A stretch of 64,000 nt of DNA from a bacterium BMS3Abin06 (GTDB lineage Bacteria > Nitrospirota > Thermodesulfovibrionia > UBA6902), in NCBI GenBank assembly GCA_002897895.1, contig BDSY01000106.1:1922-65921 (forward strand), given 5' to 3'. Within the stretch, counting starts at the first letter, position 1. Each line of letters opens with the position of its first letter. The notes under the pieces are model-generated. The model did no database searches and had not been told where the DNA came from. It saw only the letters and a program-made list of their open reading frames with translations. The position numbers and the translations under genes are program-made. Below are positions 9,963-41,868 of the stretch, piece after piece.

Positions 9963-10028
9963 ATGACAGCTATTGTTATGAGGCGCAGGGAAGCAATAAT
10001 GTCTGTAAAGGCTGAGGGGTGGACATGA
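9963..10028 (+). CDS. possible 21-aa upstream ORF ([21 protein letters not shown])
   Basis: RBS gggagg 5 nt upstream. Stop overlaps the rpoD-like ATG (ATGA). Confidence 0.2.
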
Positions 10029-11551
10029 TTATGGAGAGCGCAAAGGCCCGCTCAAATACAAATTCCTCTTCAGACGACCCGATAAAAATGTATCTCAGGG
10101 ATATAGAATGCATCCCCCTTCTTACCAAACAAAGTGAAATAGATCTTGCCGTGAAAATAGAGGCCGGGAAAGAAAATATATCAAAGATTATTTTCACGGC
10201 TCCTTTCGTAATTAAGCACATATTAAAGCTCCCTCAACTGTTAAAGGGGGGAAAAGTTTCAATAAACAATACTTGCTCACCTGAAAAAGCCGGTGCGAGC
10301 CGGTTCCATGACCTGTCGGAAACAGAAAAAAAAGAGGTTTTGGAAGAGTTTTTAAAAACTGTCAGGTCATTAAAATATCTTATCCGGAAAAGGGATTCGT
10401 CTTTTGAATACCCAGCCAATAAAAGACTGAGCCGGAAAAATGCTGAAAAAAGAAATATCCGCTTAATAAAAAACAATAATAAAATAATTGATAAGATATC
10501 CGCTCTCCATCTAAAAGAAAAAATAATTGAAGGCTTCCTGTCTCAATTTAAAAAACTGGCAGCCTTATATGAAAATATATCCGGGGAGATAAGCAATATT
10601 CAGGAGAATGTAAAAATACCTCCTGCAAAATTAAGAAACAAAAACATATTACTTGATAAAGCGGATCAATTGGATAAAGAGCCGCATGAAATCAAAAAAC
10701 TCTATAGCAATTACAGGCGTCTCAGGAATGAAATGGCAATTATAGAGTCGGAGCTGGGGCTTAAAGGGATTGAAATAGAAAAAGCATTAAAGCTCATTCA
10801 GGAGAATGAGGAAGAAATCACTGAAGCAAAAAAAATGCTTACAGAAGCAAACCTGAGACTTGTGATCAGTATAGCAAGAAAACACATTGGCAGAGGGCTC
10901 AGCCTGACTGATCTTATTCAGGAAGGCAATATCGGACTGATGAGGGCTGTTGATAAATTCGACTATAAAAAAGGCTACAAATTCAGCACCTATGCGACCT
11001 GGTGGATACGGCAGGCAATCACACGGGCATTGGCGGACCAGGGAAGGACTATAAGGCTTCCCGTTCATATGATAGAGACCATAAACAGGCTGACACAGGT
11101 ATCCAAACACCTCGTTCAGGAACTTGGGAGAGAGCCACGGGCGGAAGAGATTGCAGGAAGGATGAATTTACCTTTAGAGAGAGTGCGGACAATTCTGAAG
11201 ATATGCAAGGAGCCAATCTCCCTGGAGACCCCCATAGGCAGCGATGAGGACAGTCACCTGGAAGACTTTATAGAGGATAAGGCATCACTTATTCCGCTGG
11301 ATGCAGTTATTCAGCAGGAACTGAAGGAGCAGGTAAAAAAAGTTATAAGTTCTCTTACGAATAAGGAAACAGAAATTATCAAAAGACGTTTTGGCCTTAC
11401 AGACAGCGTTTCACAAACGCTTGAAGAGGTAGGCAAACATTTTAAGGTCACACGGGAGAGAATAAGGCAATTAGAAGGAAAGGCACTGAGAAAGTTAAGG
11501 CATCCGGCAAAAAGTCAGTCGCTCAAACTTTTTCTGGAGAAACGTTTTTAA
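10025..11551 (+). CDS. RpoD-like sigma-70 factor (group 1/2), paralog A
   Basis: Region 2: [61 protein letters not shown]. Region 4 near the C-terminus ([24 protein letters not shown]). Region-1.2-like N-terminus ([10 protein letters not shown]). RBS gagggg precedes the ATG at 10025. Confidence 0.85.
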
Positions 11552-11572
11552 TGATAAATACTGAACCGTCCA

Positions 11573-11719
11573 CAGGGTGCAGTTGTCAGGGTGCAGAAAA
11601 ACCGGGAGGCTGATAGTTTCCCGGATTCTTTAACCTTCGTCTCCCGCTCAACCTTGCTGCCTCTTTCCACACATATTTAAATCTTCAAATTCATCCTGCA
11701 CCCTGACAACTGTACCCTG
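11573..11719. repeat. MITE/REP-like element, copy 2
   Basis: Arms cagggtgcagttgtcagggtgcag and ctgcaccctgacaactgtaccctg. Lies 3' of the rpoD-like gene. Confidence 0.7.
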
Positions 11720-11739
11720 TCGCTTCCGGCACATACAGG

Positions 11740-11807
11740 AACCCCCTATGTCCGGTAATGTTTCCCCTTCTAAAAAAAACATATTTCCCCCTCTTTAGAA
11801 CACTTCC
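11740..11807 (+). promoter_or_regulatory. conserved upstream element with A8 tract, copy 2
   Basis: Sequence aaccccctatgtccggtaatgtttccccttctaaaaaaaacatatttccccctctttagaa. Lies ~110 bp upstream of the MCP at 11918. Confidence 0.4.
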
Positions 11808-11917
11808 CTATAATTCGATAAGAAGAACACGTGGCTATGAAGTTTCCCTGTTTTAGGGTGTCAAAAAACCGGATGTGATAAAAGCGGGAAATCAAGAAAA
11901 CAGCAAGGAGACAAAAC

Positions 11918-13126
11918 GTGACAAATGACTGGAAGACTTATTTGAAAATAATTGCAATTCTTACGCTGCTTACGGTTCCTTCTTTTATAGAGGAAAGCCT
12001 ATTCAGGATCATTATAAACGCACTCGTTTATTCCGCAGTTATTGCCGCAGCCTTTGTGTTTATAAAGAAGCATATTAAGAACATGCAACACAAATATGAA
12101 ACAGAACAAAAACAGTACCTCTCGGGGGTCGAGTCCTTGATAAAAGGCATGAAAGATACTCTTTTTGAAAAGTCACAACTCATCCCTGTTCTTGTCAATC
12201 AGCTGCAGGAAGTAACACAACAGACTGAGTCCGCAGCCATGGACATCGGCAGCCGCTTTATGAATATTGTTGAAAGGGCGAGAAATCAATCATCAGGGGC
12301 GTCAAGTGCTTTTTCCAGACTTGCCGGAGACGGTGGGGACAAAAATGAAACCCTGCTTGATCTTAGCAAAAAATCCCTCTCGGATGTAATAGAAAGCTTG
12401 CGGGGAGCCACCACAGTTACTAATCAGACCCTGAGTGACATGGAAATGATCATTGAAGCTACAGGGAGTGCAAAAACGATGGTTGATGAGATTGGATATA
12501 TTGCAGAGCAGACAAATCTTTTAGCGCTGAATGCAGCAATAGAGGCAGCGAGGGCAGGCGAGCATGGAAGGGGTTTTGCCATTGTTGCCGATGAAGTGAG
12601 AAAACTGTCGGACAGGTCAAACAAGGCAGCTGAGGAGATTCGCAAGCTCGTCACAGAAATTGAAACAGATACAAAAGAAATATACCGGAAGACAGAGAAG
12701 AGCGTTTCAGAAATCAATGATACTTCTACAGAGGCCGCGGCAGTGGTCGATGACACACTGAAAAAAATAGACGGGACAATAAATGGAGTAAAGACCCAGC
12801 TTGACGAACTTATGAGGGAAACCGAATCACTTGCAAAGGACATAAGCGATATAGTCATCTCAATGCAGTTCCAGGATATCACGAGACAGCGGATCGAACA
12901 TGTGATTGAACCGCTGCTTTCGTTTAAATCGGAGATTGAGAATATATTGCAGAACACAAAAAGTATGGGCGCTAAAATTCATGACCGGAACGGCAACGGA
13001 GGAGGGAACCGGCTTGAAGAAATGTACACAATGGAATCTGAAAGAAAGGTATTAAAAAACACATTATCAATAAATGACGAAATCAAGAATGAGCAGGAGT
13101 GTGAGATATGGGAAAAACAATCCTGA
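11918..13126 (+). CDS. short membrane-anchored methyl-accepting chemotaxis protein (2 TM, no periplasmic domain)
   Basis: GTG start after an AAGGAG RBS. Signalling motif [37 protein letters not shown]-terminal QFQDITRQ motif is shared with the MCP at 29201. Confidence 0.85.
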
Positions 13127-13473
13127 TAGTCGATGACTCAGCCTCCATGAGGCAGCTCGTAACCTTTGCGCTGAAGGATGCAGGATACGATGTTATAGCA
13201 GCGGTCGATGGCAAGGATGCAATAGTTAAATTAAGCGGAACAAAAGCAGATATGGTAGTAACCGACCTGAATATGCCGAATATGGACGGGATTGAACTCA
13301 TAAAACAAATCCGGAGCACGGCGGCTTTCAAGTTTATACCTGTGGTAATGCTGACAACAGAATCCCAGGAATCCAGAAAACAGGAAGGCAAACAGGCCGG
13401 GGCAAGCGGATGGCTCGTGAAACCGTTTACGCCTGAAAAACTGATAGATGTCATAAAAAAGTTTGTACGATGA
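13108..13473 (+). CDS. cheY: CheY-like single-domain response regulator
   Basis: 121 aa. [12 protein letters not shown] in VVTDLNMP, T in MLTTES, K in LVKPF. Confidence 0.85.
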
Positions 13474-13492
13474 AAGGAGAATGGAGGAATTC

Positions 13493-13852
13493 ATGATCGA
13501 CTTTAAGATTGAACAATCGGATGACAAAAGGATACTGACCATCAACGGCGAACTGACCATACAAAATGCCGATGCACTGCAGGATATATTAATTCACTCA
13601 CTGGAATATGCAGAGCATCTGGTTCTGAATCTTGAAAATGTGACGGATGTGGATTTATCCGGCCTTCAGCTTCTCTTCTCAGCCTGCAAAACGACAATGG
13701 AATTAAAGAAAGATTTTACGCTGAACGGCAACTGTCCGGAAGTATTCAAAGAGGCTGCGAGGGATGCCGGTTACTCACTGCACACGGGCTGCGGATCAGG
13801 CTGCAATAAAATGTGTCTATGGATGGTCGGTGATGATGAGCAAAAAAATTAA
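13493..13852 (+). CDS. STAS-domain protein (anti-sigma-factor-antagonist fold)
   Basis: MIDFKIEQSDDKRILTINGELTIQNADALQD...VDLSGLQLLFSA. RBS ggagg lies 5 nt upstream of this ATG. Confidence 0.75.
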   Translation: MIDFKIEQSDDKRILTINGELTIQNADALQDILIHSLEYAEHLVLNLENVTDVDLSGLQLLFSACKTTMELKKDFTLNGNCPEVFKEAARDAGYSLHTGCGSGCNKMCLWMVGDDEQKN

Positions 13853-13912
13853 ATTAACGGTAATTACAAATTTTTCATTGAAAAAGCATCGACAGGTTAT
13901 ACAGAAGCCATA

Positions 13913-16108
13913 ATGTCAAAAACAGACCAGCACAGGGATGCATACAAAGAAGAAGCCTACGAGCTGCTTGCAGAGCTTGAGACCTCTCTGCTTGAATTAG
14001 AGGAAAGTCCGGATGATCCGGAACTTATCGGGAGTATCTTCAGGGCGCTGCATACAATCAAGGGCTCAGGCGCCATGTTCGGTTTTGATGATATAGCTGC
14101 ATTTACGCATGAGGTGGAAACAGTATTCGACATGGTGCGCAATGGAGAAATGTCCGTCACAAAAGAACTCATAGACCTTACCCTCTCTGCCCGTGATCAT
14201 ATCAAAGCAATACTTGATAATCCGGATTCAATAGACAAACAAAAAGCCGGGGAGCTAATTGCCTCCTTTAAAAAGCTGTCCCCCGACACAAAAGAGCAAG
14301 AAGAAGTCAACCCCTGCTCCCCGGCTTCCCCCCCTCATGAGAATAATCCGGAGTCTGAACATCAGGAGAGAAACATAACTTATCGAATTCGATTTCGCCC
14401 TCCACCCGATATCTTCACAAAGGGAATAAATCCCGTTCTTTTAATAAATGAACTATCCACTCTCGGGGACTGCAGGATTGCGGCGCAGACAGATGCCATC
14501 CCTCAGTTAAATGATATTAATCCTGAACTCTGCTACACATACTGGGATGTAATTCTGACCACCGGCCAGGGGATAAATGCAATTAAAGATATTTTCATCT
14601 TTATTGAAGATGACTGTGGGCTGGATATTGATGCCATTGATGACGGCAAAAATCCCGATGAAGAATCCGGATATATGAAACTGAGAGAGGTGCTTGTTGA
14701 CAGAGGATACATAACCCGGGATGATTTTCAAAAAATAACAGGCACACATAAACGCATCGGTGAAATTCTTGTTGAACGCGGTGATATAAGACAGGAGGAC
14801 CTTCAGAAGATTCTTGTTGAACAGAAACCTGTCGGAGAGATGCTGATTGATGCCGGACTGGTTGACACGGGAAAAGTGGAATCCGCGCTGACCGAGCAGC
14901 AGCATGTCAGTAATGTGCGGCGGAAACAGCAGAAAACAGACCCTGTATCAAGCATCCGCGTATCATCCGACAAACTCGACAGATTAGTAGACCTGGTCGG
15001 GGAGCTGGTAACTGTACAGGCCCGGCTAACACAGACAACAGCTACTGTAAACGATCCGGAGCTGCTCCTGATTGCAGAGGAAGTGGAACGGCTGACCAAC
15101 GAGCTTCGGGACAATACAATGAGCGTCCGCATGGTTACTATCGGGGCCATGTTCAGCAAGTTCAAACGTCTGGTTCGGGACCTCTCGGGTGAATTGGGCA
15201 AAGAGGTTGAAATGTCCACGGAAGGGGCCGAGACCGAGCTGGATAAAACAGTAATAGACAAACTCAATGATCCGCTGGTTCATCTGATCAGGAACAGCAT
15301 AGACCATGGCATTGAAGCTCCTGATGTCCGTAAGGCTTCAGGGAAGCCCGGGCAGGGAATAGTTCATCTCTCAGCCAGGCACTCGGGAGCCAATGTATTA
15401 ATAGAAATAATGGATGACGGCGCGGGTCTCAACCCTGAGGCCATACGCGCCAAGGCCGTGGAAAAAGGCCTGATAGAGCCTGATGCTGAACTCTCTGAAA
15501 GAGATGCATTCGCGCTTATCCTTGCACCCGGGTTTTCCACTGCCGGCAAAATAACCGGGGTATCGGGCCGCGGGGTGGGCATGGATGTGGTAAAGCGCAG
15601 CATCGATGCGCTCCGGGGTTCAATAGATATAAGCAGTGAAAGAGGTATCGGCACAACAATAAGCCTGAAACTGCCGCTTACACTGGCTATTATTGACGGC
15701 CTTCTGGTGAAGATAGGGCAGGACTTTTTTGTCTTGCCGCTTTCATTGGTAGAGGAATGTGTGGAATTGACAAGAGAGGATGTGGCAAGCGCCCACGGCC
15801 GCCAGATAGCAAATGTAAGGGGTGAGATAGTTCCGTACATCAGCCTGCGGGAACAGTTCATGATAAACGGGGGCACACCTGAAATTGAACAGATTGTGAT
15901 TACGGGTATAGACAGCCACAGAGTCGGTTTTGTGGTTGACCATGTAATAGGCGAGCACCAGACAGTAATCAAGACACTCGGCAGGGTTTACAGGGACGTG
16001 GAAGGAGTCACCGGGGCAACCATACTCGGTGACGGCACGGTAGCGCTTATACTGGATGTCCCGAAGCTTGTACAGAATGTGGAGAAAGAGGAGTTGGTCG
16101 GGAATTAG
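13913..16108 (+). CDS. cheA: chemotaxis histidine kinase CheA
   Basis: 731 aa. Hpt FRALHTIKGSGAMFGF. HATPase HLIRNSIDHGIE, DDGAGL, GRGVGMDVV. C-terminal CheW-like domain. Confidence 0.9.
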   Translation: MSKTDQHRDAYKEEAYELLAELETSLLELEESPDDPELIGSIFRALHTIKGSGAMFGFDDIAAFTHEVETVFDMVRNGEMSVTKELIDLTLSARDHIKAILDNPDSIDKQKAGELIASFKKLSPDTKEQEEVNPCSPASPPHENNPESEHQERNITYRIRFRPPPDIFTKGINPVLLINELSTLGDCRIAAQTDAIPQLNDINPELCYTYWDVILTTGQGINAIKDIFIFIEDDCGLDIDAIDDGKNPDEESGYMKLREVLVDRGYITRDDFQKITGTHKRIGEILVERGDIRQEDLQKILVEQKPVGEMLIDAGLVDTGKVESALTEQQHVSNVRRKQQKTDPVSSIRVSSDKLDRLVDLVGELVTVQARLTQTTATVNDPELLLIAEEVERLTNELRDNTMSVRMVTIGAMFSKFKRLVRDLSGELGKEVEMSTEGAETELDKTVIDKLNDPLVHLIRNSIDHGIEAPDVRKASGKPGQGIVHLSARHSGANVLIEIMDDGAGLNPEAIRAKAVEKGLIEPDAELSERDAFALILAPGFSTAGKITGVSGRGVGMDVVKRSIDALRGSIDISSERGIGTTISLKLPLTLAIIDGLLVKIGQDFFVLPLSLVEECVELTREDVASAHGRQIANVRGEIVPYISLREQFMINGGTPEIEQIVITGIDSHRVGFVVDHVIGEHQTVIKTLGRVYRDVEGVTGATILGDGTVALILDVPKLVQNVEKEELVGN

Positions 16109-16276
16109 GAATTATCAGAAAAAATAGCCGGTATTGCCGCAGACCCGGGCAATGGCGGATCAGATAGAGAGTGAGAAATATTAATTTCGTTATTCGTAAC
16201 CGTTCAGCGTGTCCGTGAAAAAAGACGGATTACGGATAGCGGACACGGACCACGATTAAATTAAGGAGGTCAAAAA

Positions 16277-18526
16277 ATGAAATGGAAGGATCTTAAGATC
16301 GGGAAAAAACTGGCAATAGGTTTCGGGAGCCTGCTTCTTTTGATAGCAATCGCAAGCCTTGTGGGGTTTAACGGAATCCAGAAAGTAGGCCACGACCTTT
16401 TTGTTGTAGGTGAGAAGGAATCTCCTGTGGTTGAAATGGCCAATCGGATGAAAATAGCGCTCATGATGGCAAGAGATGCAATGTCTGAATTCAAAAGCGC
16501 CACTTCCGCGATCGCCACAGACAATGAGGCAAGTCTTGAGGGCATAGTTCAGAACTACAATCAATCGGTGGCTGATTTTGACCGGTTCACAGGGGCTGTT
16601 CTGGAAGGCGCCAGGCTTAAAGACGGAACAACGGTTATTAAAACAGATAATGAAAAACTGGCAGAGACAATCAGCCAGGCAGAGGAACTGCACGAAGAAA
16701 AGTTTCAGGCTGCTGCAACTGAGATGATGCTGGCCGGCAGGGAGCTTTTGAAGAAAAAGGCGGAAAGCGATAATGCCATTAGTGAAATGGATAAAATTTT
16801 TAATGAAGTATACAATGACGCAGGCTCTGTAGAGGAAATAATCTCTTCCGACATAGATAAAAAGGCAAAACAGGCCAATATCGGGAGTAAAGCCAGGGCC
16901 ATCCTGCGTGAAGAAGTCCCCCTCGCTGATATGGCAAACGAGATCAAAATCATTATGGGACAAACCCGTCTTACGCTGGAGGAATATGTTCAGACACGTG
17001 ATTTGAAGGACCTGGATAAGATAGAAGAAAAGTATGGGGAGTGGGTATCGCAATTCGATAAAATTGTATCGGCAATCCTTGACGGCAGCACCGTGGACGG
17101 TAAAAAAATCATTGCCACCGGCAATAAAGCCGTCCGGGATGCAGTCAAGGAACTGGATGGAAACCACCTTGATTTTCAAAAAAAGGCTGCCACCCTGATG
17201 GCAGCCCACCGCCTGGTTATTGAAAAAGCCGGCAAAAGCGCTGAGGCAATGAATAATCTCGAGAGGATTGGTGAAGAAGCAGCCTCCTTGCTCACCAAGG
17301 TTGAAGAACTTGCAGGCGAGCAGATGTCCGGAGCCATAAAAAGCGGCGCTGCTTCCAAAAAGAGCGCTGTGGCCATGCTCCTCGGGGTAGCGTCTTTATC
17401 CATCCTGCTTGGTGTATTTCTGGGAATAGTTATTACAAGGGGGATCACCGGTCCGCTTTCTGAAGGGGTCGACTTTGCAAAGGCCATAGCAGAAGGCGAC
17501 CTTTCCGCTGATATAGATATAAACCGGAAGGATGAGGTCGGTATCCTGACAAATGCATTGAAAGAGATGGCATCGAAACTAAGAAATATTGTCGGAGATA
17601 TAAAGTCTGCCGCGGACAATGTATCATCCGGGAGCCAGGAGCTGAGCGCCACTTCCGAGCAGATGTCGCAGGGCGCAACAGAGCAGGCAGCCTCGGCAGA
17701 GGAGGCATCGTCATCAATGGAGCAGATGGCCGCCAACATCAGGCAGAACTCGGACAATGCCCAGCAGACCGACAAGATCGCCGGCAAATCCGCTGCAGAC
17801 GCTAAGGAAGGCGGCGAAGCGGTCTCAGAGGCAGTGACAGCCATGAAAGAGATTGCCGGCAAGATTTCAATTATCGAAGAAATAGCAAGACAGACAAACC
17901 TCCTGGCCTTAAACGCAGCCATTGAGGCGGCAAGGGCAGGCGAGCACGGCAAAGGCTTTGCAGTAGTGGCTGCCGAGGTCCGCAAGCTTGCAGAGCGCAG
18001 CCAGGCAGCGGCAGCCGAGATCAGCGACCTGTCTTCCTCCAGTGTGGAGGTTGCTGAAAAGGCAGGTGAAATGCTGAAAAAGCTCGTGCCCGACATACAG
18101 AAGACAGCGGAGCTTGTGCAGGAGATAAATGCTGCAAGCAATGAGCAGAACACAGGGGCCGAACAGATCAATAAGGCCATACAGCAGTTAGACCAGGTGA
18201 TCCAGCAGAATGCCGGGGCTTCCGAAGAGATGTCCTCAACAGCGGAAGAGCTTTCCTCCCAGGCGGAACAGCTCCAGGACACAATAGCCTTCTTTAAAGT
18301 CGGAGACAGCGGCAGCGGGATGAAGAGGCACAAGATAATCACTGGAAAGAGGACGGCTCCAATAGCAGCGCAGCAATTAAAGGTTGCGCATATTGCGCAT
18401 GGAGAAGCAAAAACACATCAGGCCATTTCAAATGAAACAGCAGAAACTGCAAAACCTTCAGGAGTTGCCATAGAGATGGATAATGACGGCGGCAATGGAA
18501 CAGATGAGGAGTTTGAGAAATATTAA
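16277..18526 (+). CDS. methyl-accepting chemotaxis protein with large helical periplasmic domain + HAMP
   Basis: 749 aa. TM1 near the N-terminus, ~330-aa periplasmic region, TM2, then signalling motif [36 protein letters not shown]. Confidence 0.9.
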
Positions 18527-18624
18527 AAAAGCTTTCAGCAATCGGCAATCAGCCTTCAGCACGGAAAAATGCAGGGCTGAAGGCTGAAAGCTAATCGCTA
18601 ATCGCTTTTTCAAAGGAGGTAAAA

Positions 18625-19185
18625 ATGACCATAGCAGAAATAACAGAGGCAACCCAGCATCTGACATTCAAGTTAGATGAAGAAATATTCGCTCTTGATA
18701 TCTCCAAGGTCAGGGAGGTGCTTGAGTTCACGACTGTGACAAAGGTGCCGCAAACGCCCGATTTCATGTGTGGGGTGATTAATCTCAGAGGCGGTGTGGT
18801 TCCGGTAGTTGACCTAAGATTGAAATTCGGGATGCCGGTGGCGGAGAAGACGGTCAACACCTGCATCATCATTGTGGAAGTATCGTTAGACGGAGAGACC
18901 ACGGTACTCGGCGCGCTGGCGGATTCCGTGCAGGAGGTGCTTGAACTTGAGCCTGACCAGATAGAGCCTGCGCCGAAAATCGGAACAAGATTGAAGACCG
19001 ACTTTATAAAGGGCATGGGGAAACGCGATGACCAGTTCATCATGATCCTGGATATTGACAAGGTCTTCTCCTCGGATGAGCTGGCTATTGTTCAGGATGC
19101 AGGCGGTTATGCGACTGCGGAAGAAGCAGAAACTGAAGCGGGGAGACGGGGAGACGGAGAAACAGGGATTTCACGACGGGTTTAA
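18625..19185 (+). CDS. cheW: CheW coupling protein
   Basis: 186 aa. FALDISKVREVLEF...GVINLRGGVVPVVDLR. Confidence 0.9.
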   Translation: MTIAEITEATQHLTFKLDEEIFALDISKVREVLEFTTVTKVPQTPDFMCGVINLRGGVVPVVDLRLKFGMPVAEKTVNTCIIIVEVSLDGETTVLGALADSVQEVLELEPDQIEPAPKIGTRLKTDFIKGMGKRDDQFIMILDIDKVFSSDELAIVQDAGGYATAEEAETEAGRRGDGETGISRRV

Positions 19186-19240
19186 TTTTGTAGATTGAAC
19201 CCGCAAAAGGCTGAGAGCTGACAACCGAGTGCTGATTATT

Positions 19241-21426: not shown

Positions 21427-21442
21427 AGAAAGAGGGAAAAGC

Positions 21443-21988: not shown

Positions 21989-23056
<1,068 letters not shown>

Positions 23057-28739: not shown

Positions 28740-28771
28740 TGATTTATAACAAATGAAAAGGGAGGCGCAAA

Positions 28772-29170: not shown

Positions 29171-29200
29171 GGGGGGTAAAAAATAAAATTCAGGTTTTAT

Positions 29201-30550: not shown

Positions 30551-30599
30551 TCAGGGATGGGTAATGATTATAAAAGAGTATCTTTTTACGGAGGGTTAA

Positions 30600-30968: not shown

Positions 30969-30984
30969 TGGAAGGGTGAATGTT

Positions 30985-31281
30985 ATGAAGGTTAACGCAG
31001 AAAAAAATAATGGCTTATGCAGGTTGCAGATAGAAGGTGAAATGACTATTTCTGCTGCGACAGAGCTGAAAAAGAGCCTTCTCGATAATCTTGCAAATTG
31101 TTCGGAACTTGAGATAGACCTGTCGCAGGTCAGCGAGATGGATACAACAGGTTTTCAACTTCTGTTTCTGGTTAAAAGGGAGGCCTCTCTTTTAAATAAA
31201 GTTTTTCGAATTATCTCACACAGTCCAAAAACATTGTCGGTACTGAAACTGTACAACATGAAAGATTTTTTTGAAAGTTGA
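30985..31281 (+). CDS. STAS-domain protein
   Basis: MKVNAEKNNGLCRLQIEGEMTISAATELKK...DLSQVSEMDTTGFQLL. MDTTG aligns with the SpoIIAA MDSSG phospho-site region. Confidence 0.7.
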   Translation: MKVNAEKNNGLCRLQIEGEMTISAATELKKSLLDNLANCSELEIDLSQVSEMDTTGFQLLFLVKREASLLNKVFRIISHSPKTLSVLKLYNMKDFFES

Positions 31282-31288
31282 AATTTCT

Positions 31289-33286: not shown

Positions 33287-33296
33287 GGAGGTAAAA

Positions 33297-34190
33297 ATGA
33301 ACAGGCTGACCGACAGCGAATTAATACAAGAACTTAATAAAAGATTTAAGGAAAACGAGGAAGCGCTTAACGCCCTGAGGGTAATGACGAAAAAGCTTGA
33401 GAAATTGAACAGGAAACTGCAGGAGGCAGAGTCATTAAAAAGCAATTTTCTTTCAAACATAAGGAACGAGATAAACAACCCGCTGACGTCCATTATATGC
33501 ATGTCAAAAGAACTTGCAGGAGAAACATTAGACAGCGAAACAGTTTCATCAATAGCCGGCATGATACATTCAGAGGCATTTAACCTTGATTCCCAGTTAA
33601 GGAATATCTTTGCTGCCGCAGAGTTCGAAGCAGGAGAGGCAGCCCTGAGTATATCCAAAGTGGATATGGATATGCTTATAAACAGTACGATTGAATTATT
33701 AGATCATAAAGCGGATAAGAAAAGAATAAAGGTGAATTATATGTCGCTGGATGAGTCAGGGGATGAAACTTATTTTAACACAGATTCTGAAAAAGTCCAG
33801 ATCGTCATTTTTAATCTCCTGGGCAATGCCATTGAATATAGCCATGAAGAAGGACAGGTGGAATTAAAGGCATGGAGACATGAGGGGCACATGAATATCT
33901 CTGTGAAAGATCATGGGATGGGGATGGATGTACCAGACCAGGAAATAATTTTTGACAGGTTCAGACAGCTTGACACAGGCGTTGCAAAAAGTCATTCAGG
34001 TCACGGCCTTGGCCTCAGTATAATAAAGGCCGCAATCGAATTGTTATATGGAACGGTTTCCATTGAATGTGTTAAGGACAAGGGGTGTGTTTTTACAATA
34101 TCTATACCTGAGGCAGAGAGTGAGATGGAAGCATATACCATTTCAAATGACGGCAATGAGTTCATTTTCGAAGGGGTGGAAGAATTTTAG
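33297..34190 (+). CDS. soluble histidine-kinase-like protein with His-less H-box (H->N) and an intact HATPase
   Basis: H-box position reads FLSNIRNEINNPLTSI (compare AHEINNPL in 20122 and 36144). N/G boxes NLLGNAIEYS, DHGMGMD, GHGLGLSI are intact. Confidence 0.7.
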   Translation: MNRLTDSELIQELNKRFKENEEALNALRVMTKKLEKLNRKLQEAESLKSNFLSNIRNEINNPLTSIICMSKELAGETLDSETVSSIAGMIHSEAFNLDSQLRNIFAAAEFEAGEAALSISKVDMDMLINSTIELLDHKADKKRIKVNYMSLDESGDETYFNTDSEKVQIVIFNLLGNAIEYSHEEGQVELKAWRHEGHMNISVKDHGMGMDVPDQEIIFDRFRQLDTGVAKSHSGHGLGLSIIKAAIELLYGTVSIECVKDKGCVFTISIPEAESEMEAYTISNDGNEFIFEGVEEF

Positions 34191-34201
34191 GAGGGGGGTG
34201 T

Positions 34202-34684
34202 ATGGAGACAAAAGAAGCCGTAAAAACACATTTTCTGCATCCCGGAGGGATTTTTGCCGATAAAAGCGAATGTCTTGTAACTACCATTCTCGGTTCATGT
34301 GTGTCGGTTTGTCTATTGGATCCTGTGTTGAAAATAAGCGGGATAAACCATTATATGCTTGCTTTATGGAATGGAGAAGGTCTGCCCTCTCCCCGGTATG
34401 GCAATATTGCAATAACAAAACTGATCGAGAAGATGCTTGGCCTCGGGAGTAAAAAACAGGATCTAAGAGCAAAGGTCTTCGGCGGTGCATCTTTAATCCA
34501 GAGTTCGAGCGGCTTCTTAAATATCGGCAAGCGTAATATTTTAATAGCTGAGGATATGCTGCGGGATGAAAATATACAGATAATAAGCCGTGATGTTGAG
34601 GGGAATGCCGGACGCAAGCTGATTTTAAATACAAAAACAGGGAGTGTTTTATTAAAGAAAGTCATAAAAAAACAGATAAGATGA
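34202..34684 (+). CDS. cheD: CheD-like deamidase (second copy)
   Basis: 160 aa. TTILGSCVSVCLLDP...HYMLALW. Confidence 0.7.
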   Translation: METKEAVKTHFLHPGGIFADKSECLVTTILGSCVSVCLLDPVLKISGINHYMLALWNGEGLPSPRYGNIAITKLIEKMLGLGSKKQDLRAKVFGGASLIQSSSGFLNIGKRNILIAEDMLRDENIQIISRDVEGNAGRKLILNTKTGSVLLKKVIKKQIR

Positions 34685-34754
34685 TTTTTCCGATGGGATG
34701 TAAATCCATTAACCGGCAAAAAGAAAAAAGCTGAAAACAAAGAGAGATTAAGTT

Positions 34755-35840
34755 ATGCATTCAAAAGATAACAAAGGACAATCTGGAATAGATCCTGATA
34801 ATGTAATGAAAGATTTATCAAATATGCGCCAGGGGATCCGTACACTCATGAATACTATAACCGGTATGACCGAGCTAATCCTTGATACGGACCTGACACA
34901 GGAGCAAAAAGAAAACATTAAAATTACCAGGCAATCTGCCGACTCTCTCCTTGATCTGATAAACAGTATCTTGGATATTTCAAAACCCGGCATCGGCCAT
35001 GAGTCGATAACACAGCGCCATGCTTCAGAGAACAGTGGCGTTGAGGGCGAATTTTCCACAAAGAAGATTCATATCCTTCTTGCCGAGGACAATGTCCTGA
35101 ACCAGAAAGTAACTGTCCGCATTTTAGAGAAACAGGGACATTCCGTGGAAGTCGCAGCCAACGGCAAAGAAGCGCTTTATATCCTGGGGAAAAAGCATTT
35201 TGACCTTGTGCTCATGGATATCCAGATGCCGGATATGGACGGGATAGTAGCCACACGGATAATCAGGAAATCAAAAGACGCGGGCATTGACCCTGGGATT
35301 CCGATCATCGCCCTGACCGCCCATGCCTTTCAGCGGGATAAAGAAGAGTGCCTGAAAGCTGGAATGAACGGTTATATTACAAAACCATTTAAAAAGCAGG
35401 AACTTCTCAGTAAAATTGAACGGCTTGTCTCAGGTAATGGCTCTGCTGCCGGGGTTAAAACAACTACAGTCTCATACGCCGGTGATGTAGTAGTAGACAG
35501 GGTAGAGTCCCTGTCACGGCTTGACGGTGATGAAGAACTTCTCCGGGAACTCTGGGAGATATTCATTGATGACACTCCCGGGCAGATGCAGGCTCTCAAA
35601 AAAGCTATAGATACCGGCGACTTTGTAATAGTGGAACGTACAGCACACTCGCTAAAGAGCGCTGCCGCCAATATTGGCGCAAATTTAATGAGGGCTGAGG
35701 CATTCAGTATCGAGCTGGCCGGGAAATATAACAATATAGATAATGCCCGTATATTATATGAAAAGCTTGAATATGAATTTAAAAGGCTACTGGAAACACT
35801 TACCGGCCTGCTCAGTATATATCATAAGGTCCATCATTAA
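34755..35840 (+). CDS. REC-Hpt phosphotransfer protein with a degenerate HisKA remnant (H->Q) and no HATPase
   Basis: N-terminus [21 protein letters not shown] aligns with [20 protein letters not shown] (D in [12 protein letters not shown]). Hpt [16 protein letters not shown]. About 80% DNA identity to the REC-Hpt part of 23098. Confidence 0.75.
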
Positions 35841-35858
35841 AAACATCGTAATAGGTTA

Positions 35859-36143: not shown

Positions 36144-37418
36144 ATGGCCGATATGACCGGACGTAGACAGGAGGAAGAGAGCGGGAAGAATGTGGAAGAG
36201 GCACTGCGGAAAAAAGAGAGGCAGCTTGCAGCCTCCCAGAGGGTCGCCCGTCTCGGCAGCTGGGAGTGGGATATTGTCAACAACAAGATAACCTGGTCTG
36301 ATGAGCTTTACCGCATATTCGGCTTAAAGCCGCAGGAGTTTGAAGCGACTTATGAGGCATTTTTGAATGTGGTGCATCCGGACGACAGGGAAAAACTTGA
36401 CAGTGCGGTAAAAAAGTCACTGAGCGATAAAAAGCCTTATCACGTTGATGCCCGCATTATTCGCCCGGATGGGTCGGAATGGGTGATGGAAGCACGCGGA
36501 GAGGTAACGTACGATAAATCCGGCAACCCGCTTTTAATGGGGGGCACTGCCCAGGACGTCACAGAACGCAAACAGATAGAGGAAGACCTGCTCAGACACC
36601 GCAAAGAGCTGTCCCTGTTAATAGAAGATAAAACTTCTGAACTGAAAGCAGTCATTGAACTTCTCCAGGACGAGATCGCGAGGCGCAGGACTGTTGAGGC
36701 GGAAGCTGTACGCGCCGGCCACCTGGCAGCGCTCGGTGAATTAGCTGCGGGTGTGGCCCATGAAATCAACAACCCCATTAACGGCATTATAAATTATACC
36801 CAGATACTGGCAAACAGGAGCAAAAAGGGAAGCGAGGAACACGATATTGCCAATAGAATTATAAAGGAGAGCAACCGCATTGCCGGCATTGTCAGCAATC
36901 TCCTTTCATTTGCCCGCGACAGGAAAGACGAAAAAATTCCAACCGGAATTCAGGATGTATTGTCAGACTCGCTTGCCCTTATCGAAACACAAATAAGAAA
37001 AGAGGGCATCAGGCTCAAGGTCGACATTCCGTCAAATCTGCCCGCAGTCTCTGCCCAGCCGCAGCAGCTCGAACAGGTATTTTTAAATATAATAAGTAAT
37101 GCACGCTATGCCCTTAACCAGAAATATCCGGGAGCAGATGACAATAAAACCCTTGAAATCCTTGGAGAAAAAGCAACTTTAAACAATAGCCGGCATATAC
37201 GCATAATATTTCATGACAGGGGGACAGGAATCAAAAATGAAATACTTGATAAAATAATAAACCCGTTTTTTTCAACCAAATCCGCTGACAAGGGTACAGG
37301 ACTTGGGTTAAGTATCAGCCATGGTATTATAAGTAACCATGGAGGCAAACTTATCATTGAAAGTATCGAAGGAGAGTTTACGAGAGTAATAATTGAACTA
37401 CCGGCCATGAAGAAATGA
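36144..37418 (+). CDS. cytoplasmic PAS histidine kinase
   Basis: 424 aa. PAS (LGSWEWDIVNNKITWSDELYRIFG). H-box VAHEINNPINGI. HATPase NARYAL, DRGTGI, GTGLGLSIS. Confidence 0.85.
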   Translation: MADMTGRRQEEESGKNVEEALRKKERQLAASQRVARLGSWEWDIVNNKITWSDELYRIFGLKPQEFEATYEAFLNVVHPDDREKLDSAVKKSLSDKKPYHVDARIIRPDGSEWVMEARGEVTYDKSGNPLLMGGTAQDVTERKQIEEDLLRHRKELSLLIEDKTSELKAVIELLQDEIARRRTVEAEAVRAGHLAALGELAAGVAHEINNPINGIINYTQILANRSKKGSEEHDIANRIIKESNRIAGIVSNLLSFARDRKDEKIPTGIQDVLSDSLALIETQIRKEGIRLKVDIPSNLPAVSAQPQQLEQVFLNIISNARYALNQKYPGADDNKTLEILGEKATLNNSRHIRIIFHDRGTGIKNEILDKIINPFFSTKSADKGTGLGLSISHGIISNHGGKLIIESIEGEFTRVIIELPAMKK

Positions 37419-37427
37419 GTGACTGCG

Positions 37428-37539
37428 AAGGCACAGAGAAGCAAAGGCACAAAGGCACAGAGTTTAAAAAAAATATAAGGAAAGTTTTTATCCTTTTCTT
37501 TTACTTTGTGCCTTTGCTCCTCTGTGCCTCTGTGCCTTC
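37428..37539. repeat. palindromic element built from GGCACA(A/G)AG nonamers (36-nt arms, ~40-nt A/T loop)
   Basis: gaaggcacagagaagcaaaggcacaaaggcacagag ... ctttgtgcctttgctcctctgtgcctctgtgccttc. Lies between the kinase stop and the sigma-54 activator start. Confidence 0.65.
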
Positions 37540-37560
37540 GCTGTTAAAAAGGTAAAACAT

Positions 37561-39261
37561 ATGTCCAGGATTTTAGTTGTCGACGACGAAGAAAGCATTC
37601 GTTTTACATTTGATAGTTTTCTCTCGGATGAAGGGTATGAGGTGACCACTGCCGCAGACTACGATGAAGCCATGGGCAGGCTGCTTGAAAAGGATTTTGA
37701 TTTGATATTCATGGATATCGTTTTAGGCGGGAAGACAGGAATCGATCTCCTGCAGGAAGTAAGGAAGAGGGAACTTCACTGTCCTGTAGTCATGATAACA
37801 GGATATCCTAATGTTGAAACAGCGTCCGGCGCTCTCCGGTCCGGTGCCTTTGACTATATATATAAACCGGTAAACCAGGAGACCCTGCTTCATACAGCCG
37901 TCATGGCATTGCAGTACAAGACCCTCCAGGATGAAAACGAGAAATACCGCCTGAATCTTGAAGCAATTTTCAGGAGTGTAAAAGATGCCATCATTACAGT
38001 AGATAAAGATATGGTAGTGCTTGAAGTTAATGAAGCGGCTGAAAATATTTGCGGCATTAATCGCAGCTTTATCGGCAAGACCCTCGGCGCCTTTCAGACA
38101 GACTGCATTTATAAATGTCTTGATACCCTCAGAGAAACCATCACTAAAAAAAAGGCGGTTGAAGTATATCGCACTGAATGTATACATAATGGCCGGTTCA
38201 GGCAGGTTGTATCAATAAACACATCCCCTCTTTTAGACAGTAAGGGCGAATTCTCCGGCGCTGTCATGGTTGTGAGGGATGAAACCCGCCTGAATGATCT
38301 CGAGCGCAATCTGCGGGAACGCCGGCAATTTCATCATATTATCGGACAGAATAAAACCATGCAGAAAATTTACTCGCTTATAGAAGACCTGGCCGATGTG
38401 CAAACCACGGTACTGATTACCGGTGAAAGCGGAACCGGCAAAGAACTGGTTGCTGAAGCAATTCACTACAAGGGTATACGAAGCAGCAAACCCCTGGTAA
38501 AAGTAAACTGCTCGGCCCTGTCTGAAAGCCTGCTTGAAAGCGAACTCTTCGGCCATGTGAGGGGAGCATTTACAGGGGCTGAGAAAGACAGGACAGGCCG
38601 CTTTCAAAGGGCGGACGGCGGGACCATCTTTCTGGATGAAATAGGTGATCTCTCTCCGGGGATGCAGCTGCGTCTACTCAGGGTAATCCAGGAAAAGGAG
38701 TTTGAGCGTGTAGGAGACTCTACCCCTCTGAAGGCGGATGTTCGTGTTATTGCTGCCACAAATCAGGATCTGGCGGAAAAAGTCAGGCTTGGCGAATTCA
38801 GGGAAGACCTCTATTACCGCCTGAAAGTCGTTGAACTGGCATTACCGCCCCTCAGGGAACGAAGGGACGATATACCGTTTCTGACAGATTATTTTCAGCA
38901 GAAGTTCAACAACAAATTCAATAAAAATATTATAGCTTTCTCTCAAGAAGTCCGGAAGAGGTTTATGGATTATGCCTGGCCCGGCAATGTCAGAGAGCTT
39001 GAACATGCGATCGAGCATGCATTTGTCACAGCACACCAGAATACCATAACTGTTGACCGGCTTCCCCTGAGCTTCCATGAACTTGCGGAAGAAATTACCC
39101 CGTTGACAAAACATGAGACGGAATCAGGCCGTGACACTCTCCTGGATGCACTGAAAAAGACCGGATGGAACAAATCCAAAGCAGCCCGCCTCCTGGGTAT
39201 AAACGTACGGACGATTTACCGGAAAATCGAAAAGTACAATATTAAGACAGAAGAAATATAA
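37561..39261 (+). CDS. sigma-54-dependent transcriptional activator (REC-PAS-AAA+-HTH, NtrC/Fis family)
   Basis: 566 aa. REC with D in IFMDIVL. Walker A GESGTGKE. GAFTGA motif. ESELFGH. C-terminal Fis-type HTH. Confidence 0.9.
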   Translation: MSRILVVDDEESIRFTFDSFLSDEGYEVTTAADYDEAMGRLLEKDFDLIFMDIVLGGKTGIDLLQEVRKRELHCPVVMITGYPNVETASGALRSGAFDYIYKPVNQETLLHTAVMALQYKTLQDENEKYRLNLEAIFRSVKDAIITVDKDMVVLEVNEAAENICGINRSFIGKTLGAFQTDCIYKCLDTLRETITKKKAVEVYRTECIHNGRFRQVVSINTSPLLDSKGEFSGAVMVVRDETRLNDLERNLRERRQFHHIIGQNKTMQKIYSLIEDLADVQTTVLITGESGTGKELVAEAIHYKGIRSSKPLVKVNCSALSESLLESELFGHVRGAFTGAEKDRTGRFQRADGGTIFLDEIGDLSPGMQLRLLRVIQEKEFERVGDSTPLKADVRVIAATNQDLAEKVRLGEFREDLYYRLKVVELALPPLRERRDDIPFLTDYFQQKFNNKFNKNIIAFSQEVRKRFMDYAWPGNVRELEHAIEHAFVTAHQNTITVDRLPLSFHELAEEITPLTKHETESGRDTLLDALKKTGWNKSKAARLLGINVRTIYRKIEKYNIKTEEI

Positions 39262-39644
39262 ACATTCTAAAAGCATGACATGTCATGTTTTCATGACAGC
39301 ATGTTTTCATGACATGTCATACATCCCCCCTTCGATAATCTCAATTTTCACGATCAGAAGCCCTTTCAAAAGTCCTTTATTTGTCTTCATGGATTTGTTT
39401 CAGGGTCTCACAACACATTGATTTTACGAGATTCTGAAACAAGTTGAGAATGAGAGTTGATAGCATTTTCAGACTTTTGAAAGGGCTTCAAATATCTCGC
39501 ATATCGCTGGCATAATTCTTGTAGTATATTTTCTTATCAGTGGGGATTCTCCCTTGGAATTTATTTAAAAGCAATTGAGTCTCTATATAAACTGATCCCG
39601 GATATGGCGGGACAATGGAGGTGAATCAGGGAGGGCTGATAATA

Positions 39645-39863
39645 ATGAATTCTCATATAAATAGTAAATTGTGCCCTTTTGTTAAAAAACCGTTTACTGA
39701 TTGTTACTGCTTTAACCTGACCAGTAGAGACATTAATTCGGCAATACATTATTGCAGCAGTGATTTCAAATCATGTGATATCTATAAAAGAGGGTCAGAC
39801 CGGCAAGAATTCCCCCCTCCCTCTGGTCGAAATGAGAGGCAAGGAGCCTTATGGAAAAAATGA
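39645..39863 (+). CDS. small Cys-rich hypothetical protein (paralog of 6562)
   Basis: MNSHINSKLCPFVKKPFTDCYCFNL...HYCSSDFKSCDIY. RBS gggaggg lies 9 nt upstream of this ATG. Overlaps the STAS gene by 13 bp. Confidence 0.35.
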   Translation: MNSHINSKLCPFVKKPFTDCYCFNLTSRDINSAIHYCSSDFKSCDIYKRGSDRQEFPPPSGRNERQGALWKK

Positions 39864-40189
39864 ACTTTACATTTGAACAATTCGGCAATGTAGGGATATT
39901 TAATCTGACCGGAGAGCTGACTGCAGAACATGAGGATGAATTATACCTGCTCCTCATGAGGGCAATACACAGTGACGGGCGTTCAGTGTTGAACCTGAAA
40001 AAAGTCACGAGAATTGATCTTACATGTTTAAAATTGCTCGAAAAAGCCTGTTGCGCATCGATCCGGCTGAAAAACGCTATAATTCTGACCGAACTTCCAA
40101 AGCATTACTTATCAGAATTATTTAATCTCAGGACTGCTGATAGCATTAAGACCGAACAGCTTGCGAATCACGGTAAAAGCGCTGTTTAA
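39851..40189 (+). CDS. STAS-domain anti-sigma-factor antagonist-like protein
   Basis: 112 aa. GIFNLTGELTAEHEDELY...IDLTCLKLLEKAC resembles STAS/SpoIIAA. No clear phosphorylatable Ser/Thr at the aligned position. Confidence 0.75.
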   Translation: MEKMNFTFEQFGNVGIFNLTGELTAEHEDELYLLLMRAIHSDGRSVLNLKKVTRIDLTCLKLLEKACCASIRLKNAIILTELPKHYLSELFNLRTADSIKTEQLANHGKSAV

Positions 40190-40206
40190 GATTTAAAGTA
40201 ACTATT

Positions 40207-40323
40207 CAGGTAGGCACAAAGGCACATAGTGGCAAAGGCACAAAGTAAAAAAAGGGATGAAAAACTTCTCCTGTATTTCTGTAACCCTTTGTGCCTATGT
40301 GCCTTTGTTACTTTGTACCTGAG
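40207..40323. repeat. palindromic GGCACA(A/T)AG nonamer element, copy 2
   Basis: gtaggcacaaaggcacatagtggcaaaggcacaaagtaa ... ctttgtgcctatgtgcctttgttactttgtacctgag. Lies between the STAS gene and rpoD-like paralog B. Confidence 0.65.
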
Positions 40324-40365
40324 TAGTTACAAATTTAAAATCATATACCTTGCAGGGGGGTAAAC

Positions 40366-41868
40366 ATGGCAGAACAGTCAGAGTATACAGGGCTTAAAGA
40401 CAACATATACACCGACAGTATAACAGAGGAGGCTGAAAACTCTGATCGCGGGACAAGAAGGGTTGTCCTTATGGCAAACTACTCTGCCGGAGACCCGATA
40501 AAAATCTATCTCAGAGACATGGAATCACTCCCCCTTCTGAGCAAAGAGGGCGAGGTGGAGATTGCCCGGAAAATAGAAATTGAGAAAGAAAAAATAGCCG
40601 GGTTTGTTTTTAAAGCTCCTTTTGTCTTTGAACAGATACTTGATTTTCCACATTTATTAAAAGGGGGGGAAGCGACGATAAACAATATTTGCATCATCGG
40701 TAAAGATATGTCCGATACAGACAAGGCAGATATTCTGGAAGAATTCTTAAAGACAGTCAGGTCACTGAAACATCTTATTCAAAAAAGAAACTCTTATATG
40801 CAGGAACCAGCCGATAAAAAACAGTGCAGGAGAAACGCAGAGACAATAAAGGCCCGGATAGAGAAAAACAATATTAAAGTAGTTAATAAAATTTCCGCCC
40901 TTCATCTCAAGGTAAAATTAATCGAGGGTTTTATATCCCAGTTTAAAAGACTGGCAGCCCTTTATATCAGCATAGTCAGGGAAACAGACAATATCCGGGG
41001 GGATGAAACCGGCACATTCCATACTAATTACATATTGCTTAAGAAAAAAATGGCGACTATAGAATCAGAACTCGGGCTTGAAGGAATTGAAGTGGAAAGG
41101 GCGTTAAACTCAATACAAAACAGTGAACGAGAGATTAATGAAGCAAGAAAGATTCTCACGGAGTCCAATCTAAGGCTTGTAATGAGCATAGCAAGGAAAT
41201 ACACAGGCAGGGGGCTCGCTTTAGCCGACCTTGTCCAGGAGGGCAATATCGGCCTCATGAAGGCTGTTGACAAATTCGATTATAAAAAAGGCTATAAATT
41301 CAGCACATATGCTACCTGGTGGATTAAACAGGCTATTACACGGGCGCTTGCGGATCAGGCAAGAACCATAAGGCTTCCTGTTCATATGATAGAAACCATC
41401 AACAGGCTGACACAGGTGTCAAAAGAACTTACACAGGAACTCGGCAGAGAGCCCGAGATAGAGGAAATTGCAAAACAGATGGAAATTCCCGTTGAAAAAA
41501 TCAGGGCAACTCTCAGGATATGCAGGGAACCGGTATCATTGGAGACTCCCATAGGAAACGACGAGGAGAGTCATCTGGAAGACCTTATAGAGGACAAGGC
41601 ATCGCTTATTCCCCTGGATGCCGTCATACAGCAGGAGCTGAAGACGCAGGTAAGAAAGGTTATAAATTCTCTCACCGGAAAAGAGGCTGAAATTATTAAA
41701 AAACGTTTTGGCATTGAAGAAGGCCACTCACAGACCCTCGAAGAAGTAGGCAGACATTTCAAAGTCACACGGGAGCGGATAAGGCAATTAGAAGGAAAGG
41801 CCATAAGAAAATTAAGACATCCGCTGAGAAGTTATTCCCTTAAACTTTTCCTGGAGAAAAATATTTAA
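40366..41868 (+). CDS. RpoD-like sigma-70 factor, paralog B
   Basis: 500 aa. [61 protein letters not shown]. Region 4 [27 protein letters not shown] gggggg. Confidence 0.85.

Follow-up and report, generated by a model that had tools for sequence, protein, structure and literature searches.

Primary sigma factors are usually treated as constitutive, and principal-like paralogs with nearly the same promoter-recognition residues are found beside the principal sigma in Streptomyces (HrdA-D) and in cyanobacteria (group 2). Three described systems come closest to the arrangement analysed here. In Borrelia burgdorferi the Hk2/Rrp2-RpoN-RpoS cascade leads through a sigma-54 promoter to a sigma factor gene (PMC2940757, PMC11109971). 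In Chlamydia trachomatis an Rsb partner switch acts on the primary sigma-66 (PMC4552016, PMC8256260). Chemosensory clusters of the F7 'stage 1' type carry anti-sigma antagonists, and Che1 of Shewanella, together with CrsR/CrsA, acts on RpoS (PMC7184735, PMC9855816). Here we describe a stretch of 64,000 nucleotides, referred to as the window, from the bacterium BMS3Abin06 (Nitrospirota, Thermodesulfovibrionia, UBA6902; assembly GCA_002897895.1, contig BDSY01000106.1, positions 1,922 to 65,921 of the forward strand), which carries two genes for RpoD-type sigma factors, sigA and sigB. We consider it probable, if well short of certain, that these are anciently duplicated and separately wired RpoD-type sigmas, sigB standing at the ancestral locus behind a sigma-54 cassette and sigA being the derived copy. 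A literature search returned nothing on two coexisting RpoD copies in Thermodesulfovibrio or Nitrospirota, nor on a sigma-54-dependent rpoD.

Both proteins, of 508 (sigA) and 500 (sigB) amino acids, match the Pfam models Sigma70_r1_2, r2, r3 and r4, so that their preliminary description as full-length RpoD-like paralogs with regions 1.2, 2, 3 and 4 was correct. In sigA, 17 residues precede region 1.2, which is followed by a non-conserved region of about 210 residues and by regions 2, 3 and 4; in sigB, 42 residues lie ahead of region 1.2. The two sequences are 64% identical over 495 columns; by region the figure is 83% (region 2), 78% (region 3), 77% (region 4) and 57% (non-conserved stretch between 1.2 and 2). 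The near-identical region 2 string quoted in the same description is accurate. The segments that recognise the -10 and -35 elements are nearly the same in both proteins and agree with the RpoD consensus, from which we infer that sigA and sigB share their promoter specificity. The view that either copy could be group-1-like also found support. The NCBIfam RpoD C-terminal model TIGR02393 (cut-off 354 bits) is passed by sigA (370.8) and by sigB (358.1), while both fail the RpoS models TIGR02394 (293.8 and 281.3 against a cut-off of 378.7) and NF004207 (278.5 and 270.3 against 394). A search of the PDB, made for sigB alone, gave primary sigmas as the top matches (346-366 bits) and RpoS at about 218. 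The top homologs are all Nitrospirota 'RpoD' proteins of 485-555 amino acids with the same architecture, and the sources annotate the family as RpoD or primary sigma. Unlike HrdA-D or the cyanobacterial group 2 factors, sigA and sigB both retain the long non-conserved region and score above the cut-off of the RpoD C-terminal model; since neither is visibly reduced, sequence alone does not tell which one is principal. Membership of the anti-phage sigma family MzaA was considered and rejected, the two sigmas scoring 348-355 bits against a cut-off of 800.

Neither protein has a match to region 1.1 (PF03979), for which only the 17 and 42 residues ahead of region 1.2 would be available. The full-length RpoD model NF004208 scored 537 for sigA, where the alignment begins at profile position 108, and 508 for sigB, both under the cut-off of 555, and neither gene lies beside dnaG. 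These features speak for a reading in which neither copy is primary, sigA and sigB being group-2-like accessory sigmas and a third, dnaG-linked rpoD lying elsewhere in the genome; a dnaG-linked sigma does exist in another Nitrospirota lineage (L002; relatives are denoted here by such locus numbers). We find this quite unlikely. The L002 sigma, encoded directly after dnaG, has the same short N-terminus without region 1.1 and the same architecture, and the short N-terminus is family-wide, with a median of 43 residues before region 1.2, so that the missing region 1.1 looks like a trait of the lineage, or of the phylum, and no argument against a primary role. Further evidence came from a bootstrapped neighbour-joining tree in which dnaG-linked or other-phylum RpoDs served as outgroups: the whole sigma family was monophyletic (100% bootstrap) and was as close to the outgroup primary sigmas as those are to each other. 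The scores with the RpoD C-terminal model and the annotation of the family point the same way.

The two genes are intact and under purifying selection. Each protein sequence was found unchanged on six contigs (50-200 kb, from several assemblies). The ratio of nonsynonymous to synonymous substitution rates (dN/dS) against close relatives was 0.20 for sigB and 0.24 for sigA at equal dS (0.23), and against a more distant genome 0.18 for sigB and 0.17 for sigA. The unchanged copies and this range of dN/dS, 0.17-0.24, ruled out an assembly chimera as well as a pseudogene, the latter having been raised in the preliminary description as a possible fate of one copy.

The gene contexts of the two sigmas differ, and each context recurs in other genomes. 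The B-type context consists of the sigma gene, preceded where the cassette is present by a kinase, a sigma-54 activator and small genes, and followed by a gene for a DHH-CBS-PolyA_pol nucleotidyltransferase and in most loci by surA; proS, ftsZ and ftsA come next in some relatives. It was found in nine lineages (the window, L001, L092, L094, L095, L099, L100, L101 and L102), and the sigmas of these relatives are 55-89% identical to sigB. A search of genome contigs with sigB recovered mostly distant RpoDs, L001 being the only close relative. In the A-type context, seen outside the window in L096, L097 and L098, a REC-LuxR regulator precedes the sigma, which is usually followed by MCP-CheY-STAS-CheA. 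We read the paralogy as old because one genome, GCA_054043685.1, carries both types on separate contigs, a B-type sigma (P0005) and an A-type sigma (P0098), each in the same gene context as its counterpart in the window. In the neighbour-joining tree the A-context sequences formed one clade (54%) and the sigB group another (99.5%), and A and B were not sisters; the closest relatives of sigA outside the A clade, P0006 (the nearest non-A sequence) and P0046, stand in a B-type context. Most simply, the B locus is read as ancestral and the A type as derived from it by one old duplication. It is sigB, and not sigA, that stands in the class-wide rpoD locus among core genes, and sigB, at this locus of a Thermodesulfovibrionia-like family, is most likely the principal sigma of the lineage. 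The polarity assumed in the preliminary description, where paralog B was taken for the 'alternative' copy, is thus probably reversed, the A type forming a derived clade. A relative-rate comparison, tried as a test for a 'relaxed' copy, was dropped because its outcome was reversed between two genomes, the more conservative copy being sigA in the window's genus and the B type in GCA_054043685.1.

The PAS kinase, the sigma-54 activator, the Cys-rich open reading frame (ORF), the STAS gene and the TGGCAT-N5-TTGT string that had been placed upstream of sigB were all recovered at those positions (Table 1). The activator gave 237 bits with the Sigma54_activat model, contains HTH_8 and the GAFTGA motif and is 65-92% identical in relatives. 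The kinase gene lies directly ahead of the activator gene also in L001, L095, L100 and L102, and the PAS kinase is likely the partner of the activator. Downstream of the activator gene, the palindrome ATGACATGTCAT occurs twice (0.18 matches expected), about 190-235 bp upstream of the element TGGCAT-N5-TTGT (TGGCATAATTCTTGT in the window). The pair, as exact copies or as close variants (L095) with a spacing of 32-34 bp, is present in seven of the eight activator loci (the window, L094, L092, L001, L095, L101 and L102), where it sits roughly 190-270 bp upstream of the sigma-54-type element; the remaining locus, L100, has different palindromes. The core of this element, TGGCAT-N5-TTG, is found in all eight, followed by T in the window, L094, L092, L095, L100, L101 and L102 and by A in L001, and both the N5 spacer and the flanks diverge around it. 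A spacer of 400 nt would contain one such match by chance with a probability that we estimate at about 0.0015 (4^-9 per position). Its conservation at every activator locus makes the candidate, which had been called 'weak', a conserved footprint, and together with the palindrome pair it strengthens the idea of a sigma-54 promoter put forward in the preliminary description. In all probability the element is a genuine sigma-54 promoter, its -12 being both unusual and conserved. Canonical TGGCAT-N5-TTGC elements occur elsewhere in the window, both of them intergenic and on the minus strand: TGGCATACCCTTTGC (49121-49135) about 110 nt upstream of dnaK (47100-49013, minus strand) and TGGCATGCCCTTTGC (52758-52772) about 140 nt upstream of a glycosyltransferase gene (51527-52618, minus strand). 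The organism therefore evidently uses sigma-54, and a genomic copy of rpoN would be implied by the activator and these canonical sites. Rfam and tRNA scans of the window returned nothing, so that the conserved intergenic elements are not known RNA families.

The same nucleotides might instead form an extended -10 promoter of the sigma-70 type (TGnCATAAT), as a simple scan finds, at 39487-39516, TTCAAA-18-CATAAT extended by TG, which overlaps the motif. Comparison of the loci makes this very improbable. The would-be -10 decays to CATGTT in L095, CATATT in L100, CATGCT in L001, CATATT in L101 and CATAAA in L102, whereas TGGCAT and TTG, 5 nt apart, are invariant in the same five loci, and the activator gene and the palindromic upstream sites go with the motif.

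Several small genes lie between the putative promoter and the sigma gene. The Cys-rich ORF begins about 120 nt after TGGCATAATTCTTGT, and its five core cysteines are kept in the six orthologs found (L001, L092, L094, L095, L100 and L101), other Cys-rich ORFs taking its place in L102. A homolog search with this ORF returned only itself and one relative, and its AlphaFold model was too poor for use (predicted local distance difference test, pLDDT, of 54). A further small Cys-rich gene (CPNLVEW...C...YC...C) comes first after the promoter in L100 (6304-6522), L001 (3027-3250), L101 (418-642) and L102 (7335-7559) and is missing from the window; judging by its similar cysteine spacing, it may belong to one family with the Cys-rich ORF of the window. 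In L001, L092, L094, L095, L100, L101 and L102 the start codon of the sigma gene is overlapped by another small gene, here called MGF (about 62 amino acids, MGFRSLAEAVILQSLEDLW...), intact copies of which lie at 2536-2751 in L094, 2672-2887 in L092, 9817-10035 in L095, 3834-4049 in L001, 1427-1624 in L101 and 7811-8038 in L102. Neither the Cys-rich ORF nor MGF matched any Pfam, NCBIfam or PHROG family, and MGF had no sequence match in the PDB. The gene order in relatives is Cys-rich gene or genes, STAS gene where present, MGF and sigma, with overlaps or short spacers through to the nucleotidyltransferase gene, and the genes from the Cys-rich to the sigma gene look like one operon; in the window the nucleotidyltransferase gene is probably co-transcribed with sigB. 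Of MGF itself the window keeps only the last 11 or so codons (about 40328-40363), a hairpin repeat standing in its place. This hairpin looks like a recent insertion, because it is part of a dispersed repeat family, the core of which (GGCACAAAGGCACA) has 7 matches in the window against 0.43 expected, with intergenic copies at 40198-40332, at 37446-37536, between the PAS kinase and the sigma-54 activator, and at 21391-21404.

The STAS-fold protein encoded just upstream, STAS-B, scored 25.9 bits with the Pfam STAS model (cut-off 22.6). Its AlphaFold model (pLDDT 79) superimposed on RsbV (6m36) with template-modelling (TM) scores of 0.69/0.77 and a root-mean-square deviation of 2.2 A, and it also matched MlaB, a STAS protein without phospho-regulation. 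The residue at the position of SpoIIAA Ser58 is not conserved, being T in the window and in L001, I in L094 and K in L095, and the STAS-B gene is absent from L092, L100 and L102. An anti-sigma kinase of the RsbW/SpoIIAB type, whose presence the preliminary description had left to be checked, was not found in the window, which encodes no small HATPase_c_2 protein; nor was a PP2C/SpoIIE (RsbU-type) phosphatase domain found in the larger ORFs scanned across it. Because the phospho-site varies, the STAS-B gene is missing in some relatives and the window holds no RsbW or PP2C protein, a canonical phospho-dependent partner switch acting on sigB, as had been suggested, is not supported. By these features STAS-B would be a non-canonical STAS-only protein and not an RsbV-type phospho-switch. 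Chlamydia offers a precedent for STAS-only proteins tied to the control of a housekeeping sigma, and a non-canonical role of this kind is possible for STAS-B (PMC8256260). The chlamydial system, however, has RsbW (kinase and anti-sigma factor), RsbU (phosphatase) and phosphorylatable RsbV proteins, whereas the window lacks the first two and the phospho-site of STAS-B is not conserved.

We propose that both sigmas would direct RNA polymerase to the same promoters and that what separates them would be the timing and manner of their production or retention. At the sigB locus, the PAS kinase would phosphorylate the NtrC-type activator, which would bind the palindromes and drive sigma-54 polymerase from the TGGCAT-N5-TTGT promoter; transcription would then pass one or two small Cys-rich genes, the STAS-fold gene and the small MGF gene into rpoD, and the cassette would in this way add a signal-dependent input to the expression of the sigma. 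In this proposal sigA is the derived paralog; it stands behind a NarL-type response regulator and would be co-regulated with the adjacent chemosensory cluster, Che1, through a 41-nt element. As predicted from the DNA, the sigB cassette appears functionally most like the Borrelia Hk2/Rrp2-RpoN-RpoS cascade (PMC2940757), in that a PAS-type kinase and an NtrC-type activator would control a sigma-54 promoter ahead of a gene of the sigma-70 family. The target in Borrelia is RpoS, an alternative sigma, whereas the target predicted here is of the RpoD type and occupies the class-wide rpoD locus. Also unlike Borrelia, the activator gene is directly adjacent, the promoter is separated from the sigma gene by small Cys-rich, STAS and MGF genes, and the -12 element is TTGT.

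Several observations weigh against this proposal. None of the loci has the canonical C in its -12 element (seven have T, one has A), a lack that the preliminary description had noted for the window; no rpoN gene lies in the window; and a simple promoter scan of the window gave no convincing sigma-70-type promoter for sigB. The deep nodes of the neighbour-joining tree lack resolution, and in the window's genus sigA is nearer than sigB to the family consensus (distances over regions 2 to 4 of 0.186 and 0.239). In L099 the B-type sigma comes directly after a Che cluster without the activator cassette, which is therefore common and not obligatory or universal. In the window, finally, a 176-nt spacer with the very stable hairpin separates STAS-B from sigB, so that read-through into sigB is less certain than in relatives.

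The L099 locus and the spacer with its hairpin favour an alternative in which the sigma-54-type promoter serves the Cys-rich and STAS genes only, sigB being transcribed separately and its adjacency reflecting an inherited gene order without regulatory meaning; a principal sigma, moreover, is unlikely to rely on sigma-54 alone. We take this alternative seriously, while judging it somewhat unlikely. In the seven relatives that carry MGF at this position, the last small gene runs into the sigma start codon, and the upstream spacers are short and operon-like. The hairpin lacks a U-tract, no terminator was called there, and its membership of a dispersed repeat family gives it the look of a late arrival. 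Read-through from the sigma-54-type promoter into sigB is thus plausible in the window too.

The distance to the family consensus bears on another alternative, in which sigA is the true housekeeping sigma and sigB an alternative 'housekeeping-like' sigma, expressed from the sigma-54 promoter and gated after translation by a STAS partner switch. The position of sigB behind a conserved activator and a sigma-54-type promoter, with a STAS-fold gene just upstream, would agree with it. We nevertheless hold it to be unlikely: the B locus is kept in all nine lineages surveyed, with core genes flanking it, and the A type is a restricted, derived clade; the rate asymmetry is reversed in GCA_054043685.1; and the findings on STAS-B, with its variable phospho-site, its patchy presence and the missing RsbW-type kinase and PP2C phosphatase, do not agree with such gating. 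An ancient duplication, with sigB at the ancestral locus behind its sigma-54 cassette, is the explanation that we retain.

Table 1. Features of the window discussed in the text, in order of position.
Feature	Position	Strand	Remarks
NarL-type two-component module upstream of sigA	6707-9771	+	REC-LuxR regulator, HisKA_3 kinase, REC-LuxR regulator
41-nt element, copy 1, upstream of sigA	9832-9872	+	conserved in L097, L098
sigA, RpoD-type sigma factor	10025-11551	+	508 amino acids; alternative GTG start at 10019
41-nt element, copy 2, upstream of first Che1 gene (MCP, 11918)	11754-11794	+	conserved in L097, L098
Che1	11918-23056	+	MCP, CheY, STAS-1, CheA, MCP, CheW, CheR, REC-kinase, CheD, CheB
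STAS-1 of Che1	13463-13852	+	phosphorylatable Ser kept (DLSG)
Two hybrid histidine kinases and lone receiver	23098-29170	+	between Che1 and Che2
Che2	29201-35840	+	MCP, CheY, STAS-2, CheA, His-less kinase-like ATPase, CheD, HisKA-REC-Hpt protein
STAS-2 of Che2	30976-31281	+	Thr at phospho-site (DTTG); L099 ortholog has A
His-less kinase-like ATPase	33297-34190	+	297 amino acids; HATPase_c_2 27.3 bits against cut-off of 27.4; ATP-binding domain intact
PAS histidine kinase	36144-37418	+	Pfam PAS_3, HisKA, HATPase_c
NtrC-type sigma-54 enhancer-binding protein	37561-39261	+	REC, PAS, AAA+ with GAFTGA, HTH_8
Two copies of palindrome ATGACATGTCAT, 34 bp apart	39275-39320		putative enhancer (upstream activating sequence), right after activator stop codon
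Sigma-54-type -24/-12 element TGGCAT-N5-TTGT, TGGCATAATTCTTGT	39508-39522	+	GG, 10-nt spacing and G of GC present; T in place of the C
Small Cys-rich protein	39645-39863	+	72 amino acids, 5 Cys; first gene after putative sigma-54-type promoter; end overlaps STAS start codon
STAS-B, STAS-fold protein	39851-40189	+	112 amino acids; Pfam STAS
Long hairpin resembling repetitive extragenic palindromes or miniature inverted-repeat transposable elements (REP/MITE-like)	40198-40332		135 nt, -66.9 kcal/mol, z = -6.3
sigB, RpoD-type sigma factor	40366-41868	+	500 amino acids; in putatively ancestral rpoD locus of the class
DHH-CBS-PolyA_pol protein, resembles A-adding tRNA nucleotidyltransferase	41880-44531	+	11 nt after sigB; 3' of sigma in every B-type locus

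Besides the position of sigB in the ancestral locus, two features go beyond the preliminary description, namely the conserved wiring of sigA itself and the Che-like clusters between the two sigmas. A REC-LuxR regulator is encoded directly ahead of every A-type sigma gene found (the window, L096, L097 and L098). The 41-nt element matches twice in the window, where none would be expected, and has no third copy there; as it is common to sigA and Che1, these are probably under joint control, possibly that of the NarL-type system next to them. A sigma-28-like -10 (CGATAA) was also considered for this element: a -10-like block is conserved, and no consistent -35 could be seen by eye, so that no claim is made. 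In L095, a complete genome (CP070632.1), a REC-LuxR regulator (2844-3542) is encoded a few kb upstream of the B-type cassette and is 58% identical to the regulator preceding sigA; both kinds of regulator may once have stood at a single, ancestral locus.

The 30 kb between sigA and sigB are taken up by two Che-like clusters, each with the order MCP-CheY-STAS-CheA, and by kinases and a receiver between them. The opening genes of Che1 and Che2 are paralogous (CheY 57% and CheA 49% identical), and Che2 is without its own CheW, CheR and CheB. The MCP-CheY-STAS-CheA order after the A-type sigma is kept in L097 and L098, and in L099 and L100 the B-type sigma has a Che2-type cluster upstream. STAS-1 ends in a C-terminal Cys-rich tail (HTGCGSGCNKMCLW), kept in L097 and L098 and absent from STAS-2 and STAS-B, which could be a metal or redox site. 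In the His-less ATPase of Che2, the H-box reads NIRNEINNPL, the phospho-accepting His being replaced by Asn, and the substitution is kept in L099 (5367-6263) and L100 (247-1143), that is, in three divergent genomes. The protein may be no more than a pseudo-kinase or may act as an atypical Ser/Thr kinase on the STAS protein encoded nearby, and it would, as a matter of speculation, be the only candidate for an atypical STAS kinase in the window. The HisKA-REC-Hpt protein at the end of Che2 (34755-35840) shares 60% identity with the REC-Hpt portion at the C-terminus of the hybrid kinase encoded at 23098-26007, which has the appearance of a partial duplication inside the signalling island.

With the F7 clusters and Shewanella Che1 these arrays share the presence of STAS genes embedded in Che-like clusters beside or tied to a sigma, and an output other than motility is suspected. 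They differ from both in the order MCP-CheY-STAS-CheA, in the lack of a serine phosphatase or a CrsR-like anti-sigma regulator and in that the sigmas are of the RpoD type, not RpoS. Chemosensory control of housekeeping transcription can be imagined, in which the principal sigma is regulated through a sigma-54 operon with a TTGT -12, and the STAS-containing Che-like arrays, the His-less ATPase and the Cys-rich proteins decide post-translationally which RpoD paralog occupies RNA polymerase. We regard this as a long shot.

Farther from the two sigma genes, the run at 60-6295 (minus strand) encodes ketoacyl synthases, FabA/ApeI-like dehydratases, a ketoreductase and a phosphopantetheinyl transferase, with a lipid A acyltransferase-like gene adjoining, and resembles an aryl-polyene or other specialised lipid gene cluster. 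The region 55864-63102 (minus strand) encodes a large S8 subtilase, in which Ig-like domains are repeated (55864-58566), a small HNH endonuclease (59240-59551) and a UvrD-family helicase (61084-63102), and has no relation to the sigmas.

In a Nitrospirota class whose members are mostly uncultured, a conserved cassette of sigma-54 activator, putative enhancer and putative promoter thus accompanies the rpoD locus. A sub-lineage keeps a second full RpoD with a different two-component input, and both loci border STAS-containing chemosensory clusters. Even if the proposed wiring were not real, the two genes would still be a clean case of long-term retention of duplicated RpoD genes. If it is true, the logic of the Borrelia cascade from sigma-54 to sigma-S would extend to an RpoD-type sigma, and the motif, the palindrome and the small proteins would be concrete targets in cultured Thermodesulfovibrio, should those carry the cassette.

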